From Nitrospinaceae bacterium (lineage in GTDB: Bacteria; Nitrospinota; Nitrospinia; Nitrospinales; Nitrospinaceae): a DNA stretch of 64,000 bases. Below the pieces are notes generated by a model, which saw nothing but the letters and a program-made list of their open reading frames with translations, was not told the origin of the DNA and did no database searches. Positions 16,973 to 24,722 of the stretch are shown piece after piece (positions within the stretch are counted from its first letter, which is position 1; every line of letters begins with the position of its first letter). A program made the position numbers and the translations under genes. The stretch covers positions 2,976,001-3,040,000 of the forward strand of contig OZ250172.1 of assembly GCA_965237905.1 (NCBI GenBank). Direction: 5' to 3'.

Positions 16973-17386
16973 TCATTTTTTTTCAAACAGGGCATCCAGA
17001 ATCGGGCATTCGGGTATTACACCGCCTTCACACTGCGAAGAAATTTTAGCCAGTATTTTTTCCAGCTTTTTTAAATCCACAATCTTCCGGCGAATATCTC
17101 CAAGATGATGAAGTGTGATCTTTTGCACTTGAACGCAGGTGTTTTCGCCACCATCAACCAACCTCAAGAGAGCCCGAATTTCTTCAAGTGAAAAACCCAG
17201 GCCCCTGCCACGGCGTATGAAAACCAGCCGCTTCAGGTGATTTTCACTATAAATCCGATGTCCACCTTCAGTTCGAGGTGGTTTTGGGAATATCGCAATC
17301 TTTTCGTAATAGCGGATTGTCTCAATCTTGCAGTGAGTGAGATCGGACAAAACTCCAATAGTTAATCTTTTTTCTCTATTTTGCAT
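16973..17386 (-). CDS. MerR-family heavy-metal-responsive regulator (Cys84, Cys119, Cys127)
   Basis: TIG.LS..T.C.IETIRYYE, RTEGGHRIY, LGFSLEEIRALL, C-terminal CEGGVIPECPIL; true start ATG 17386 with AGGAG RBS. Confidence 0.93.
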   Translation of the reverse strand: MQNREKRLTIGVLSDLTHCKIETIRYYEKIAIFPKPPRTEGGHRIYSENHLKRLVFIRRGRGLGFSLEEIRALLRLVDGGENTCVQVQKITLHHLGDIRRKIVDLKKLEKILAKISSQCEGGVIPECPILDALFEKK

Positions 17387-17394
17387 AAAACTCC

Positions 17395-17425
17395 TTGAAC
17401 CTGTAGTTACTACAGGTTTTATATT
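17395..17425 (+). promoter_or_regulatory. MerR-type promoter/operator: -35 TTGAAC, 19-bp spacer, -10 TATATT, perfect 10-bp inverted repeat
   Basis: AACCTGTAGT-T-ACTACAGGTT at 17398-17418, spanning the long spacer characteristic of MerR-activated promoters. Confidence 0.9.
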
Positions 17426-17476
17426 ATAAGCGAAAAAATGATTTTTGGGAAATGACTTTAAAACCGGGAGAGGATC

Positions 17477-18187
17477 ATGGACAAAACACAGATCAATCAA
17501 GAAATCGTATCGGCTTTTAAGCTTGGCATCCCTCCAGTAGCAATGGCCTTCGTTGATGGACAACCGGACGGCGTGAGCACTATTGAGGGTGAATACCCCT
17601 CGTTTTGTACCTTTTGGCGCATGGCTGAGGAAAAAGTATTCTATGCACCGGCGGATAAACATTACAACTGTCCGATTGGAGCCATGATATTGGGGATCGA
17701 GATGCCCAAAGAGGTGCAGGAAGAACTGGGTGGCTTGGTTGAAAAAATGTGTGAATGTTCTTACCTGTCCGAGGATGAACCGGCAAATATTCCCACCCTT
17801 TCCAAGAAAATGAGCGGCGTGGTATATGGTCCATTGAAAGGCTTTCCGGTGGAACCTGAACTGGTCATGATGTGGTTGAAACCTTCACAGGCGATGATCT
17901 ACAACGAGGTTTTAGGTTGCTGTAAATGGTCGGAAAGCATGCAATCTATGGCGTTAGGAAGACCGGCTTGCGCGGTGATTCCAACAACCCTGGACAAGTC
18001 TCCGTTTGGGATGTCGCTAGGTTGTACCGGAATGCGTACCTTCACCGAAATCAGTGATGAACATATTCTGGCCACACTCAACTTTAGAGAGATAGATTCG
18101 TTCCTGACCAATCTTAAATCTACGGTATCGGCCAATAAAGAGATGGAAGAAATTTATATAAGCAAGAAAAACCAATTCGCCAATTAA
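17477..18187 (+). CDS. DUF169 family Cys-rich protein
   Basis: PPVAMAF, FCTF, NCPIGAMILG, VVYGPL, PELV, PACA, SLGCTGMR pattern; GAGG RBS; first gene after the MerR promoter. Confidence 0.75.
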   Translation: MDKTQINQEIVSAFKLGIPPVAMAFVDGQPDGVSTIEGEYPSFCTFWRMAEEKVFYAPADKHYNCPIGAMILGIEMPKEVQEELGGLVEKMCECSYLSEDEPANIPTLSKKMSGVVYGPLKGFPVEPELVMMWLKPSQAMIYNEVLGCCKWSESMQSMALGRPACAVIPTTLDKSPFGMSLGCTGMRTFTEISDEHILATLNFREIDSFLTNLKSTVSANKEMEEIYISKKNQFAN

Positions 18188-18262
18188 TAATTATCCTTTT
18201 ATAAAAGCAAGCCGGTTCCTTGGTTTGTTTAAATGAAGTTGTTCCACACGTAGGTTGAGACC

Positions 18263-18895
18263 ATGTCGTTTGTTTATATGAAAATCCTTGAATCCCGTCC
18301 CGAACGATACGATATAGGAATGGGTCTGTTGACTTTGGGATCGTTGACAAAAATTAAACGGCAAATCGCAGATCATGTTAATCCCGGAAATCGAGTCCTC
18401 GATTTGGGCTGCGGGACCGGAACATTGGCACAAATGTGCATTGAACGAGGGGCGCAGGTGGCTGGGGTAGATGCCAACAGCGGTATGCTTGAAGTGGCAA
18501 AGAGAAATTCGCCTTCTGCAAATTTTCTTAACATCAGCCTTAGCAATCTGGATGAGCATTTAGAGGATGAATCATTCGATATTATTTTAAGCACTCTTGC
18601 ATTCAGCGAATTGACCCGCGCAGAGAGACTTCATGTATTGAAACAAATCAAAAGAATCTTGAAAAAAGAAGGAAAGGTTCTTATCGGTGACGAAATAATT
18701 CCGGAAAATTTATCCGCCAAATGTTTTTACTATGCTTTCAGATTACCCATGCGGCTTCTTACCTGGATCGTGACCCAAAACACCACTAACGCTATTTCTA
18801 ATTTCGATGATGATGTGCAGCAGGCGGGCATGGAAATAGTCAGCCGCAAGCCGTTTATGTTGGGCATGTTCATCCTTTTGGAAATTAAAAAATGA
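18263..18895 (+). CDS. Class I SAM-dependent methyltransferase (resembles corrinoid-protein-associated CpaM type)
   Basis: VLDLGCGTG motif I, GVDAN..ML, FDIILSTLAFSEL; N-terminal YMKILES.P.RYD.G..LLTLG; overlaps the next gene by ATGA. Confidence 0.85.
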   Translation: MSFVYMKILESRPERYDIGMGLLTLGSLTKIKRQIADHVNPGNRVLDLGCGTGTLAQMCIERGAQVAGVDANSGMLEVAKRNSPSANFLNISLSNLDEHLEDESFDIILSTLAFSELTRAERLHVLKQIKRILKKEGKVLIGDEIIPENLSAKCFYYAFRLPMRLLTWIVTQNTTNAISNFDDDVQQAGMEIVSRKPFMLGMFILLEIKK

Positions 18896-19761
18896 TCGGT
18901 TGGATTAAAGACATCTATCAAACGCTATTTCGGTTTGCCCGGTTTCCGTGCGAACCTGAAACCATTGCTATCGGGAATCCTGCAAAATACTCGCCGGTTC
19001 TTGTCACCTGCAATTTTGATTATACGGTCAGACATTTAAAGAATTATTTGGAAGAAGAGCATATAGATTGCTTTCTTCTGGTGGTCAATACCAAAGGCAC
19101 CAACGTCTGGTGCGCGGCGGCTGAAGGTATTTTTACAACCGAAACGGTTCTTGCCCATTTAAAGGTTTATAATGTAAGAGAGCTTGTTAATCACACCAAC
19201 TTGATACTTCCGCAATTGTCTGTGGCTGGAGTAAAAAGAAAAGCTCTCAAAGAACATGGCTGGGAAGGAATTTATGGTCCGGTTTACTTTGCCGACTTAA
19301 AGGAATTTTTGGATAACGACTTTCGCAAGACCAAGGACATGCAGGCTCTAGAATATGGATACTGGGAGCGTTTTAAAATGGGTCTCAGCCATGCGGTTTT
19401 CTGCACATTAGTTTGCATACTTCCAATTTTTCTTTTTGCTTCCGAGTTGTGGCTTCAAGCCATCGTTTTAGTCTGGTACTTCGCTTTCAGTATGCAATTA
19501 ATTGAACATTTTATTCCCTTCGATAGATTGCTATACAAAGGTCTAGCGCTTTCCTTGCCAATTCTGGTACTGGTGCTGTTTTTCTCAATAGATACTGTTT
19601 TGCAAATCCAGGTAATAATCGGGATTATTGCCTTAGGTGCTTTTATTGGATTCGATGCCCAAGGTCATTCCCATCTCGGGCAAAATCAGAATTCGGGAAA
19701 ACTTACTGCTGGGATTTTTGCATTTTTGGCTTTATCTTATGGAGGTTTATTATTGCTATGA
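18892..19761 (+). CDS. HgcA-like membrane-anchored corrinoid protein (CdhD/AcsC-family cobalamin domain plus about 5 TM helices)
   Basis: IGNP...SPVLVTCNFDYT, LLVVNTKGTNVWCAAAEG.F, LILPQLS..GV, YGPVY..DL; hydrophobic C-terminal domain. Confidence 0.9.
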   Translation: MIGWIKDIYQTLFRFARFPCEPETIAIGNPAKYSPVLVTCNFDYTVRHLKNYLEEEHIDCFLLVVNTKGTNVWCAAAEGIFTTETVLAHLKVYNVRELVNHTNLILPQLSVAGVKRKALKEHGWEGIYGPVYFADLKEFLDNDFRKTKDMQALEYGYWERFKMGLSHAVFCTLVCILPIFLFASELWLQAIVLVWYFAFSMQLIEHFIPFDRLLYKGLALSLPILVLVLFFSIDTVLQIQVIIGIIALGAFIGFDAQGHSHLGQNQNSGKLTAGIFAFLALSYGGLLLL

Positions 19762-19946
19762 AAAAATTTGTGGATTGGGACAAGATAGAAGAGGAAACGG
19801 GTTCTGCCGAGGAAGCCTGTGAATGCACTAGAAGCAAATTACAATCACTGATTGATTTCGTGGTGGAATTATTTCCCAAGAAAAAGGATTCATCTTGTTG
19901 TCCCGAAATGAATGAAAAAGAAAATGGCCAATGCAATGACAACTGA
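19758..19946 (+). CDS. Small Cys-rich protein (CxC, CC)
   Basis: 62 aa; GGAGG RBS and ATGA overlap with the hgcA-like stop; ACEC and SSCCP motifs. Confidence 0.55.
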   Translation: MKKFVDWDKIEEETGSAEEACECTRSKLQSLIDFVVELFPKKKDSSCCPEMNEKENGQCNDN

Positions 19947-20364
19947 TACCTCAAGCTCGGCGAAAACGGTAGAAACTTCTATTTGTCCTACCTGTGGTTG
20001 TTCTTTAATAAGGTTGGGCATCGGTTCGGATCGATGGGCAAAAACTACTTACGCAGGCAAGGAGTATTTCTTTTGTTGCCAGGGTTGCGCTGATCTGTTC
20101 AATCAACAACCTCAAAAATACCTTGAGGAAACCAAGGATTTAGTCGTTTGTCCGACTTGTTTGGCAGAAAAACCGGTGCAGTGGGCTGTGCGCATGGAAA
20201 TTGCCGGATGGGAAGTGTTTTTTTGTCGATGTCCATATTGTCCGGACGTATTCCGAAAGGACCCGGACCACTACGTCAAACGTTTACAAGGTGAGATCGC
20301 TTATGATGGTGTGTTCGGTCAGGCCGGATGTTGTTCCACGGACACACAGGGGAACGCTGAGTGA
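19924..20364 (+). CDS. Tandem YHS/TRASH-like metal-binding protein
   Basis: CPTCGC...YAGKEYFFCCQGC...F...P.KY, then CPTC...FFCRCPYC...F.KDP..Y; ends GCCS; start 19912, 19924 or 19936. Confidence 0.8.
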   Translation: MANAMTTDTSSSAKTVETSICPTCGCSLIRLGIGSDRWAKTTYAGKEYFFCCQGCADLFNQQPQKYLEETKDLVVCPTCLAEKPVQWAVRMEIAGWEVFFCRCPYCPDVFRKDPDHYVKRLQGEIAYDGVFGQAGCCSTDTQGNAE

Positions 20365-21462: not shown

Positions 21463-22206
21463 ATGACACCCAAGACCCGTCTTTCGCAGATGATTCTCGA
21501 GGGACGCTACCAGCCGGGTGCGTCCCTTCTGCACCGGATGAGGCCGTCTCTTAAGCTCATTATAGTGCTCACACTTTTTCTTCTCGCTTCGTGGGGCCAT
21601 TTAGAAGTTCTGTGCGGATTGATGCTGGTTTGCCTGTTGGCGATGGCGTTGGCGCAGGTTCCGTTCAAAACGGTCGGGATGATGGTTTATGCGTTTCGCT
21701 GGTTGTTCCTGATCCTCGGGCTGTTTCCCTTGTTCACCACACCCGGCGCATCGGTTGAGGGGTTGGCGTTTCTGCCGTTTACCATTTCCTGGGAAGGGTG
21801 TCAGGCGGGATTGGAGTCGTTCCTGAAACTACTGGAAATGTTTTTCCTGTCGCTGATCCTGGTCCGCACCACCTCTCCCCAGGCGTTGATGAATACTTTG
21901 CAAAAAGCGGTCATCATCAAAAATCAAAGATGGAAAAAAACCGTTCAGGAATTTTTCATGACCGGGTTGTGGGCCGTGCAACTAATCCCGATGCTCTGCG
22001 TGGAAGCGGAAACATTTGTATTAAGTCGACTCGAGGAAGAAAATAAAAGTAAAAAATCCGGACTCAAAAAAGCCTGGCGCGCCGCCTCCCAATTGGGTCC
22101 GCTCATGGCGCACCTGTTCAAGCAGATGGACGAGTGGGAACCGGAGTTAACCGGCAACCAAAACTGGAACGACTGGCAACCGGGGGTAACGGATGTTGCT
22201 CAATGA
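21463..22206 (+). CDS. ECF transporter T component (EcfT/CbiQ family)
   Basis: GRYQPGASLLHRMRPSLKL, TM helices, LVRTTSP; no A or S components adjacent. Confidence 0.8.
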   Translation: MTPKTRLSQMILEGRYQPGASLLHRMRPSLKLIIVLTLFLLASWGHLEVLCGLMLVCLLAMALAQVPFKTVGMMVYAFRWLFLILGLFPLFTTPGASVEGLAFLPFTISWEGCQAGLESFLKLLEMFFLSLILVRTTSPQALMNTLQKAVIIKNQRWKKTVQEFFMTGLWAVQLIPMLCVEAETFVLSRLEEENKSKKSGLKKAWRAASQLGPLMAHLFKQMDEWEPELTGNQNWNDWQPGVTDVAQ

Positions 22207-22315: not shown

Positions 22316-22786
22316 ATGGGAGGGCTCATGACAACCAATAAATTTCTCGGGGCGGGGTTTGCCTCCCTCGGCATTCTTGTGGGAAGTGTATCCGGCCTCA
22401 GTAGCGCCAAACTCACGACGACTTTACTGGGCTTGCTATTTGCATTGATCGGCGGATCAGTCATCGCTTTCATTCAGAAGCTCGATGATTCTTCCCGCCG
22501 CGCTGCCGGTGTGTCTTTGCTGGCATTTTCACTGGCCGCCACGGTGGGTATTTATATCGGCCTGACGGTTCGGATCAATGACATGTTGCGAATAGGTCAA
22601 CCAGTTGTCGTCGCGTCTCAACTCGGTCAGGCTGATAAACCGGCTGTCGTTCCGTCCCGGCCCAGTCAGGACGACTATCTGAAAGGTTTGCGTACCGATA
22701 AGACCGCGTTTCTACAGGCACAGATCATCAGGGGTGAGATGCAACTGCGAGACGCCTGCAACGCTTTGGCTCAAAAACCGGAGTAA
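22316..22786 (+). CDS. Hypothetical membrane protein (about 3 TM)
   Basis: Three hydrophobic segments; 4 nt upstream of the protease gene. Confidence 0.6.
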   Translation: MGGLMTTNKFLGAGFASLGILVGSVSGLSSAKLTTTLLGLLFALIGGSVIAFIQKLDDSSRRAAGVSLLAFSLAATVGIYIGLTVRINDMLRIGQPVVVASQLGQADKPAVVPSRPSQDDYLKGLRTDKTAFLQAQIIRGEMQLRDACNALAQKPE

Positions 22787-22790
22787 CTTT

Positions 22791-24722
22791 ATGAAACTGT
22801 ATAGCCGCTGGCTGTCCACCGGCTTGCTGTTGGCCAGCTTGATTCTCGCACAAGGGAACCTACAGGCGGCCCCGCCACTTAAAGAACAGGCTATCGTACG
22901 CATTGCCGCCACCCTCCACGACGGCACAGTCGAACAGGGCACAGGATTCATAGCATCCCAAGACGGGCTTGTGGCAACGGCTTATCACGTGATACATGGG
23001 GCGAGGAAGATTGATATCTTCGCAGGCGGCAAGCCTCACGAAAATGTCACCGTTGTCGCGGTGCGCCCGCTGACCGATCTGGCCCTGCTCAGAATTCCGG
23101 TGCAGACCGCCGGCACATATTATCCGCTCGCTGCTTCACCTTCCATGGGAACACCCGGCGACGAACTCTATGTGCAAGGAATGGCACTCGGATTTCCACA
23201 CCAAACCCTGATCGGGCATCGTACGCAGAAAGGCTATCTCGTTTCACAGTTATGGACTCTAGGCTCAAAAGACAGCATTTTCTTGAGCACGAATCTTAGA
23301 CTCTTACCCATTGATATCACCGCCGAACCGGGACTGAGCGGAGGCCCTGTGGTCGACCATTCCGGTAATGTCGTGGCTGTGTTCTCAGGCAGCTTGCGCC
23401 GTGGGCGCGGTTATTCCTGGGCGATACCCGTGGATTATCTGTCTTTAAAAGATATGACACTGCTAAATAGCCGGGCTGGACAAATAACCTGGGGACAATT
23501 TCGCTTCATCCGGGCAGGGCTGAATTTCCTCCGGGCACTCGCAGTTCCCGGAACCCAACAACTCTGGCAGAGATGCCGGATGCAGGCCAACAAGCTCTCC
23601 TCTAACTGGGAAGAGTTTTATACAACCATGGTTCAACTTAACGTGCCCTTAATGCTCTACAAACCGGTGTTTGAATCGACACGGCGCAACCTCACACGGA
23701 AGAACGCCAAGCAACATAAACTACGTTTGAAGACAGCGTTCAATACAATTTTAGAGAGTCTGGTGAAGACAGAGCCCCCAAACCAGGCGTTTCAGAAGTC
23801 GCTAAGCGGGATGCCGGCGATTTGTTTTGGCGAAGCCATGCTGCGTAGTCTCCCCGCAGGAACGACGCCGGCAACCTATCGGAACCTCCTAACCTCCATG
23901 CGTTTCGGTAGACGCGTTGATGAGATCAACACCCATTTCACAGCAGTCGAAAGCGAATATCAGGTGTTGGAACGCAGGTTGACACCCATCATGGAAAAAT
24001 TGCTCGATCATAGTGCCAGGCTTGACCAAAACCTCAGCGACTACAACCTGGTACTCGAACTCATTGAATTCAGGAATACAATCGAAGACGTGGCCAAGCA
24101 GGCAACCTCCATCGAACAGTTACGCATAATTGGACATCTCGTCAACAGCGGGCTGGAGAGTGCAGAATTTCTACAGCGTGTGGCAATACAAACCTGGGAG
24201 GGTAAACATCTTAAATACGACCAAATGGAGAGAGGTTTCCAGGCAACCCTCACAGACGGCTGGCTGCCCTTCGATACAACCCTGCGCCAAGCTGTTATAC
24301 GCCCCGGTGCGTCAATGCCGCAAAGCGTAGATGCCATCTACTTCGGCACCATCGACGACCATCTGCCACGTGCCATAGCTAAATTAAGTAATAAACACAC
24401 CAACTCCACGCCATCGACCAACGCGAGCGCCTCGCAACTTGTCCCTTACTGGCAGGAGCTGGATCGTCAGATGAACGCCTATGCCCTCCGGGAGAGACTG
24501 CTTCTACGGGACAGAAAAAAAACCCGAGCCAAGTTGCACGGGGATCTGGTGCTGGAGATTACCGCAGCCAGCCAAGTAAAAGGCAAGAACATCACCGTTT
24601 ACGTGGGACAGCGGTTTCACAATCGAAAGGTGGCGCAAATTTCTTGCTCAGTACTCCGCACGAACCTCGACAATCACAAACTTTGCTGGAAACTGATCGA
24701 AAATATTAAATTCCTGAATTAA
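22791..24722 (+). CDS. Exported trypsin-like (S1) serine protease with long unassigned C-terminal region
   Basis: Signal peptide; GTGF, ATAYHV (His), TDLALL (Asp), PGLSGGP (Ser). Confidence 0.8.
   Translation: MKLYSRWLSTGLLLASLILAQGNLQAAPPLKEQAIVRIAATLHDGTVEQGTGFIASQDGLVATAYHVIHGARKIDIFAGGKPHENVTVVAVRPLTDLALLRIPVQTAGTYYPLAASPSMGTPGDELYVQGMALGFPHQTLIGHRTQKGYLVSQLWTLGSKDSIFLSTNLRLLPIDITAEPGLSGGPVVDHSGNVVAVFSGSLRRGRGYSWAIPVDYLSLKDMTLLNSRAGQITWGQFRFIRAGLNFLRALAVPGTQQLWQRCRMQANKLSSNWEEFYTTMVQLNVPLMLYKPVFESTRRNLTRKNAKQHKLRLKTAFNTILESLVKTEPPNQAFQKSLSGMPAICFGEAMLRSLPAGTTPATYRNLLTSMRFGRRVDEINTHFTAVESEYQVLERRLTPIMEKLLDHSARLDQNLSDYNLVLELIEFRNTIEDVAKQATSIEQLRIIGHLVNSGLESAEFLQRVAIQTWEGKHLKYDQMERGFQATLTDGWLPFDTTLRQAVIRPGASMPQSVDAIYFGTIDDHLPRAIAKLSNKHTNSTPSTNASASQLVPYWQELDRQMNAYALRERLLLRDRKKTRAKLHGDLVLEITAASQVKGKNITVYVGQRFHNRKVAQISCSVLRTNLDNHKLCWKLIENIKFLN

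Follow-up and report, generated by a model that had tools for sequence, protein, structure and literature searches.

Mercury (Hg) methylation by canonical HgcAB has been described as a relay in which a methyl group from S-adenosylmethionine (SAM) is placed on cob(I)alamin, is held as Cys-ligated methylcobalamin and is transferred to thiol-bound Hg (PMC11588087). All confirmed methylators carry GK in the conserved HgcA motif, and strict survey criteria exclude sequences with NVWCAAAE (10.1101/2022.03.14.484253). Nitrospina-like sequences, which reportedly predominate among the hgcA homologues of many marine waters, have been discussed by Lin et al. together with the 'fused HgcAB' clade, as being without hgcB and of unconfirmed function (PMC10083202). 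In 2019 Villar et al. figured a Nitrospina cluster containing merR1, DUF169, ubiE, hgcA and YHS genes (10.1101/648329, Fig. 1 'Cluster 3') and proposed Hg-induced control by merR. Related literature is found in PMC8163782, PMC7438021, 10.1101/2022.10.17.512643, PMC10839748, PMC12484752 and PMC7319479. We analysed a 64,000-nucleotide stretch of a Nitrospinaceae bacterium (the window; contig OZ250172.1, positions 2,976,001 to 3,040,000), in which a merR gene is divergent from a run of genes encoding a DUF169 protein, the methyltransferase CpaM, an HgcA-like corrinoid protein, a 62-aa peptide and a tandem YHS/TRASH protein. The locus is a further copy of the published cluster, and is neither a canonical hgcAB locus nor a classical mer operon.

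The window shares with the cluster of Villar et al. both the neighbouring genes and the hypothesis of Hg induction, and its corrinoid protein has 81% identity to the one from SCGC AAA288-L16 and 80% to the one from LS_NOB, genomes that are named in that study (10.1101/648329). The gene context and the induction idea, which a preceding sequence-only reading of the window had put forward, had already been published. The accessible text of Villar et al. shows no operator, no link between the methyltransferase and the corrinoid family, no variants containing merT, merP or merB and no Nitrospirota case, and leaves the 62-aa gene unnamed. Our literature search, with the supplements and the journal version of that study outside its scope, recovered no experimental test, operator analysis or CpaM link for the cluster. 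What is new here is: i) the match of MerR and its operator to those of merT-merA operons; ii) the presence, in a Nitrospirota genome, of one operator core before both a mer operon and cpaM; iii) the occurrence of merT- and merP-like genes inside the operons of relatives; and iv) the identification of the methyltransferase as CpaM, which elsewhere is fused to the corrinoid family.

The operon is probably under mercury control, with Hg(II) as the likely inducer that switches it on, because its MerR and operator match those of mercury-resistance operons. The window MerR is 53-54% identical to, and has the same Cys spacing as, plasmid MerRs that stand divergent from merT...merA operons: on all five plasmids that were opened, out of 30 listed matches, a merT-merP-(merF)-merA run was divergent from the MerR match, and four of these five regulators were annotated merely as helix-turn-helix proteins. 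The three-Cys set for trigonal binding is present (C84, C119 and C127 align with MerRs of merA operons), and the last Cys loop has the length that is common to the MerRs of merA operons, one residue shorter than in a second MerR type found in relatives. MerR-controlled promoters are known for a spacer of 19-20 bp, and the dyad operator of the window lies within the 19-bp spacer between the -35 and -10 elements of the divergent promoter, as expected of an Hg-responsive MerR (Table 1). A sigma-70 promoter scan, which is blind to a 19-bp spacer, returned five sites against 6.9 expected by chance. The 15-bp operator core is identical to the site before the mer operon on plasmid pMR68 of Pseudomonas sp. 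K-62 (L022), and the other four plasmid sites differ little from it. The operator was kept in all 18 loci with a divergent merR, window included (14 by pattern, 4 by inspection with one change), these loci being kin and partly redundant. A loose form of the pattern occurs eight times in the source genome of the window (G000; single contig, 96% complete; G-numbers refer to genomes and L-numbers to loci throughout).

The association with mercury-type control extends beyond the closest relatives. Of 20 loci from GTDB genomes, ten have the window-type merR, five another MerR, one (L017) a third MerR, three are cut short upstream and one, from Methyloglobulus (L018), has none. The second MerR type is encoded co-directionally with the cluster and has its own operator, similar to the site found ahead of merR-merT-merP-merA in G113 and G119. 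In L017, from the Nitrospirota genome G120, the 16-bp core CTGTACTTAGGTACAG precedes cpaM and, on the other strand, an adjacent merR-merT-merP-like-merA run; the end of this contig overlaps by 91 bp a contig with a MerA over the cut-off. Several relatives carry mer-like genes inside the operon, in the slot after the DUF169 gene: merT-like genes stand there in L016, L120 and L191, and a merP-like HMA gene is present in L016, L019 and L191. In L126, L127 and L129 (probably one population) merR-merT-merP follows directly after the cluster. The sequence-only reading had proposed MerR control by soft metals and had noted the lack of merA, merT, merP and merB. The control gains an operator and points to mercury, not to soft metals in general. 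The lack holds for the window, in which no match to merA, merB, merT, merP or merF was found, but not for these relatives. Compared with mer operons such as that of pMR68, the window is alike in MerR subfamily, divergent layout, operator with 19-bp spacer and YHS gene, as are its relatives in their merT/merP-like genes; it differs in that G000 is without merA and merB, the enzymes behind the operator being a methyltransferase and a corrinoid protein.

As judged from natural single-chain fusions, CpaM and the HgcAB-like corrinoid family are a functional unit, which supports the coupling of a SAM methyltransferase to the corrinoid protein that had been read from the window. CpaM exceeds the cut-off of its model and is the sole copy to do so in G000; its gene overlaps the corrinoid gene by 4 bp. 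When 24 N-extended HgcAB-like homologues, picked from 150 listed, were scanned for such fusions, 12 had a CpaM above the cut-off within the same polypeptide and five more a weaker or partial match, against none of six canonical HgcAs. N-terminal extensions of 140-190 residues without a Pfam match were seen in the HgcAB-like proteins P0357, P0427, P0447, P0453, P0468 and P0485. A search for longer forms of the corrinoid protein gave 14 proteins, 13 of which had a methyltransferase domain; none was closer than 42% and none was a fused CpaM-corrinoid form of the window's own clade. It is thus probable, from these sequence comparisons, that CpaM loads the corrinoid protein. Phylum surveys gave three matches among 351 genomes (phylum of G122) and two among 301 (phylum of G120), too few to measure the contexts of the family; two of these five (G246 and G200) were without an adjacent cpaM match. 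Taken together, the impression is of a portable methyl-transfer module in the CpaM/HgcAB-like family, with the clade of the window as the branch attached to the mer regulon.

By its profile scores the corrinoid protein is a ferredoxin-less relative of the NF043039 family and not a member of it. It scores 228.7 bits on this HgcAB-like fusion model (cut-off 285; profile positions 1-240 of 350) and less, 135.7 bits, on the HgcA model NF040863 (cut-off 275); its N-terminus is common with the NF043039 family, and neither CxxCxxCxxxC nor a C-terminal ferredoxin domain was found in it. The equivalent of the cobalt-ligating Cys93 is Cys74, a residue that all 40 aligned homologues retain, and GK is absent from all 53 clade members that have the motif (among 54 listed). 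The predicted model (pLDDT, the predicted local distance difference test, 86.7; cap region, residues 71-80, of low confidence) contains five C-terminal membrane helices and an N-terminal domain that superposes on the corrinoid iron-sulfur protein's large subunit at 1.8-2.3 Å over ~125 residues, and the best structural match, 9a0b, is itself a computed HgcAB model. By prediction, then, the protein has the fold of canonical HgcA (an N-terminal corrinoid fold and about five membrane helices), binds B12 and is membrane-bound. Its resemblance to canonical HgcAB comprises the CdhD-family corrinoid domain, the conserved Cys, the five predicted helices and SAM as likely donor; it differs in having NVWCAAAE (not NVWCAAGK), a separate clade, no hgcB and a dedicated methyltransferase. 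With the 'fused HgcAB' clade (PMC10083202), represented by CpaM and the HgcAB-like fusion protein NF043039, it has in common the CpaM directly upstream and the N-terminus, whereas it lacks the C-terminal 2x[4Fe-4S] and an adjacent ferredoxin, ends in the fifth predicted helix, and is accompanied by the peptide gene and by MerR control. The designation HgcA-like is apt as regards the CdhD-family domain and the conserved Cys, but not as regards a canonical HgcA: on motif, profile and phylogeny the protein is not one, and belongs to the 'fused HgcAB' sister family. No plasmid or viral copies of the corrinoid gene were found.

In 96 of 98 loci with this clade (partly redundant; the two exceptions are truncated) the peptide gene comes after the corrinoid gene, and W7 and CECTRS were kept in 16 of 16 aligned copies, with a ratio of nonsynonymous to synonymous substitution rates (dN/dS) of 0.045-0.18. 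A CC pair in the peptide was rejected as a functional site, as it is missing in five of the 16 copies, the conserved motif being CECTRS; the idea that the peptide is what is left of the Cys-rich tail of fused HgcAB was likewise rejected (hhalign probability 0.2%). In the ESM Atlas, matches were confined to the peptide's own cluster, which has no name, and to DUF169 clusters. The peptide is a candidate thiol partner of the corrinoid protein. The YHS protein has ten invariant Cys and a near-invariant C-terminal CC; its single plasmid match directly follows merB on pMR68, and a homologue in L163 closes a merRTPFA operon. Of 80 metagenome YHS loci, 53 lie in the cluster and 27 outside. A fold search with the YHS protein stayed without a match at E <= 0.001; the top entry, VIA (Z 5.0), showed a generic YHS/TRASH resemblance. 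The DUF169 gene is present in most close relatives, was not detected in the distant loci L017 and L018, and yielded no plasmid copies; the slot after it is filled by a thioredoxin-like gene in many loci (L001, L005, L008, L009, L085).

No MerA over the cut-off was found in G000, the five best paralogues being without the C-terminal CC, nor a MerB match by a search that did recover the MerB family in other genomes, nor a merT or merF match; the MerR queries gave one match. A 714-aa MerA-like flavoprotein (G000:C1:948384-950528) has a membrane extension at its N-terminus and lacks the C-terminal CC; genes of this kind might be counted as merA in error. For metH, G000 has a near full-length match below cut-off. 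The corrinoid clade occurs in 15 of the 120 genomes of the phylum, G000 included, with the YHS gene in all 15, and in none of ten congeners. The cluster has likely been acquired, since its GC content is 43% in a genome of 50.5%. In G071 a clean deletion of ~3.5 kb begins in merR, reaches into the YHS gene and has left a YHS fragment at the chromosomal site where G073 keeps the cluster (L183:14465-14662, compared with G073 L182:11591-15256), and the cluster copies of L009, L014 and L019 have suffered damage. Three of the 120 genomes have a MerA over the cut-off, and one of these three, G086 (on a separate contig of 36.7% GC), is a cluster genome; 14 of the 15 cluster genomes are without MerA and all 15 without a MerB match. 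The cluster thus often stands without merA, without excluding it. That it replaces merA as a rule was considered but is not supported, MerA being rare anyway and co-occurring in three genomes named below. The merA operon of G086 (L079; G086:C3), from a cluster-bearing metagenome-assembled genome, may lie on a foreign contig.

Both MerB matches among the 120 genomes (G108 and G110) are located just upstream of a cpaM gene that is accompanied by a more distant HgcAB-like gene; the latter is followed in G108 by a ferredoxin gene and a merTP fusion, under an ArsR-type regulator. These merB-like genes (L077:4570-5273 in G108, L078:1291-1920 in G110) keep CALD, with the first catalytic Cys and the Asp of the pMR68 MerB, and contain an in-frame TGA near the position of the second Cys, followed by an open frame that ends in CCS; they likely encode a selenocysteine-containing MerB/SaoL-like lyase. 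Directly after the cluster, G010 (L015:7687-8145) and G011 (L080:7088-10732) have a metH-like gene, which from its translation we take to be metH, the B12-dependent methionine synthase. G016 (C16; C62/C52; L043, L205, L081) apparently has two copies of the cluster ends, and its second merR adjoins an ars-like run (ArsR, ArsC-like and Acr3-like by translation). In three loci of genus g4 (L200, L201, L202) the MerR type and operator of the window stand before a gene that joins a thioredoxin domain of the DF family to a MerC-like membrane domain; in L200 and L202 a thioredoxin-like gene and a DsrE-like gene come next. The g4 genomes have no MerA over the cut-off, and these loci may represent a merA-less mer-like regulon.

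The six-gene cluster is real, conserved and under purifying selection. The dN/dS of 0.04-0.18 for all six genes (three pairwise comparisons, of the window with three relatives) and the gene order kept in relatives place it beyond chance, in agreement with the co-conservation that the sequence-only reading had expected. Its three-Cys MerR gene and the divergent five-gene run were recovered where that reading had placed them (Table 1), with exact ATGA overlaps at 18892-18895 (CpaM/corrinoid) and 19758-19761 (corrinoid/peptide). The overlap of the peptide and YHS genes measures 35 bp with the 19912 start and 11 bp with the 19936 start. A gene of the CbiQ family (the T component of an energy-coupling factor transporter) at 21463-22206, 1.1 kb beyond the cluster, is probably there by chance, because none was detected beside the cluster in relatives. 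The region 22316-24722 encodes a small membrane protein, followed by a protein of 662 aa in which a trypsin-like domain is combined with a long, unassigned C-terminal part.

Table 1. Features of the merR-DUF169-cpaM-corrinoid-peptide-YHS locus (window positions).
Feature	Position	Strand	Remarks
merR, putative Hg-type MerR-family activator	16973-17386	-	137 aa; metal-site Cys84/Cys119/Cys127, fourth Cys = Cys19
Predicted MerR-activated promoter/operator	17395-17425	+	TTGAAC, 19-bp spacer with dyad CTGTAG-TTA-CTACAG, TATATT; 51 bp before DUF169 start
Possible overlapping merR promoter	17423-17451	-	TTCCCA-17-TATAAT; top consensus match, weak
DUF169 protein	17477-18187	+	236 aa, 8 Cys; PF02596, E 2.6e-22
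75-bp gap	18188-18262	+	slot occupied by extra genes in relatives
CpaM, corrinoid protein-associated class I SAM methyltransferase	18263-18895	+	210 aa; NF043040 254.6 bits (cut-off 180)
HgcA-like CdhD-family protein, ferredoxin-less, 'fused HgcAB' sister family	18892-19761	+	289 aa; Cys74 in NVWCAAAEG
62-aa peptide	19758-19946	+	invariant W7 and CECTRS (16 copies aligned)
Tandem YHS/TRASH protein	19912-20364 (start 19912, 19924 or 19936)	+	13 Cys; PF04945

The reading that we favour, tentatively and as a slightly less than even proposition, is that of an Hg-induced operon in which CpaM methylates the corrinoid protein and the HgcA-like protein methylates Hg, so that the cell can shed it. Binding of Hg(II) to MerR would activate the DUF169-cpaM-corrinoid-peptide-YHS operon, CpaM would pass the methyl group from SAM to the B12 cofactor on the membrane-bound HgcA-like protein, and the latter would transfer it to mercury, with the canonical HgcAB relay as a model. 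The CECTRS peptide and the YHS protein might supply the thiols that the cysteines of HgcB give in canonical HgcAB, electrons might come from the thiol proteins and from general cellular ferredoxins, and the benefit might lie in export or volatilisation of the methylated product. In its stronger form, a MerA-independent Hg resistance by methylation, induced by Hg(II) or methylmercury (MeHg) and possibly proceeding to volatile dimethylmercury, this would be rather unlikely; the analogy is with ArsM, which volatilises arsenic.

A number of observations weigh against methylation as the function. The main gap is the missing ferredoxin: canonical HgcA needs two electrons per turn, which come from HgcB (PMC11588087), and hgcB is absent from the window, the best match in the genome having 30.7 bits against a cut-off of 99. 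As the protein is not a canonical HgcA and has no ferredoxin partner, electron supply is left without explanation and the 'complete regulated pathway' of the sequence-only reading is unproven. The genome has no CobS or CbiC match either, and B12 is therefore likely scavenged. The motif NVWCAAAEG does not conform to the canonical N(V/I)WC(A/S)(A/G/S)GK, and in a quick IQ-TREE analysis of 93 rows of corrinoid domains, without resolution of the deeper branch order, the window clade stood on its own (SH-aLRT, the approximate likelihood ratio test of Shimodaira-Hasegawa type, 100), apart from the canonical GK-motif HgcA clade (99). Both fused-HgcAB strains that have been tested made no MeHg (10.1101/2022.03.14.484253), and canonical methylators reportedly gain no protection from methylation (10.1101/648329). 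MerA co-occurs with the family in G086 and, outside the phylum, in G120 and G121. On the side of regulation, the hidden Markov model scores fail to separate Hg from Cu or Cd sensors (TIGR02051 MerR, the best NCBIfam model, 116.6 bits with cut-off 150.85; CueR 113.2 and CadR 112.4, also below their cut-offs), the best plasmid match of the second MerR type sits among P-type ATPases, outside mer genes, and three of the four genus g4 genomes have a MerC-like gene, and no corrinoid gene, behind the window's MerR type and operator. No mer or MerR match was seen in the stretches read around the CpaM fusions of G138 and G530 (other phyla) or the Methyloglobulus copy L018, and of the 27 YHS loci outside the cluster one lies in a mer operon (L163), one has a weak HMA match and 25 (many short) are without a mer match. 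In the L018 locus (L018:2833-7034), a peroxiredoxin gene and a linalool dehydratase/isomerase-like gene precede cpaM, the corrinoid gene and the peptide gene; neither a MerR nor a YHS match lies nearby, and this is possibly a non-Hg use of the same clade.

These observations bear on several rival explanations. Under the same Hg induction, the cluster could act on a different acceptor (another metal(loid), a thiol or a membrane metabolite) or in B12/thiol repair, as an accessory of the mer regulon; we regard this as doubtful. The non-mer contexts of the family (G138, G530, L018), the lack of MeHg formation by the fused-HgcAB strains, the position of the cluster next to metH in G010 and G011, the passengers that mer regulons carry (hisI and a lyase on pMR68) and the reported dehalogenation of halomethanes by canonical HgcAB (10.64898/2026.04.26.720869) all accord with it, but Hg-type control has survived at least one exchange of regulator and is retained in a second phylum as well, merB-like and merTP genes flank a separate branch of the family, and an Hg-induced protein with Cys-ligated methylcobalamin would meet Hg(II) in any case. 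Sensing of a different soft metal (Cu, Ag, Au, Cd or Zn) by the MerR, or a control that is the relic of a mobile mer island with no present Hg function, is improbable. The MerR, CueR and CadR models do lie within 5 bits of each other, the last Cys loop does differ in length from that of the second MerR type, and the GC content, the absence from ten of ten congeners, the deletion in G071 and the damaged copies would suit a relic; against this, the nearest annotated MerR relatives regulate merA operons and have the same loop length and operator, merR has a dN/dS of ~0.12, and the operator is intact at 18 of 18 loci.

In methionine synthase, SAM serves to reactivate the oxidised cofactor, and CpaM could do the same in a system for the breakdown of mercury, in which, under Hg induction, reduced cobalamin would take the methyl group from MeHg or reduce Hg(II), with Hg(0) as the product, as a surrogate of MerA/MerB. 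This we consider unlikely, even though the mer-regulon evidence (MerR, operator) applies to it equally. The YHS homologue behind merB on pMR68 would fit it, Hg removal is easier to explain as a benefit than MeHg production, and the cluster genomes are almost all without MerA and all without a MerB match, yet some have merT-like importers, which imply a downstream sink. However, it would need a supply of cob(I)alamin with no ferredoxin at hand, CpaM is fixed and often fused, as fits a catalytic donor, and the module would be redundant beside the merB-like lyase (G108, G110) or merA (G120). For canonical HgcAB, methylation of MeHg itself is given as an unknown in PMC11588087. In one ocean survey the abundance of hgcA, of Nitrospina-like type, was correlated with MeHg (rho 0.85, n = 11; PMC7347909), which fits either a producer or a responder.

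The operator, the company of mer genes and the CpaM fusions indicate which genes to co-express and with which inducer, and make the marine Hg question directly testable. The cluster could be a source of ocean methylmercury. If Hg is methylated on induction, as in the reading that we favour, the cluster would be a mercury-responsive methylase, unlike canonical hgcAB. The window has a MerR in place of the ArsR-like regulator described for ND132. If instead demethylation or Hg reduction holds true, surveys that count the cluster as a methylator would have the sign wrong; either outcome would provide the first function for the CpaM/HgcAB-like family. And should methylation prove to confer resistance, methylated mercury would have dedicated, inducible producers in the nitrite oxidisers of oxygenated mid-water.

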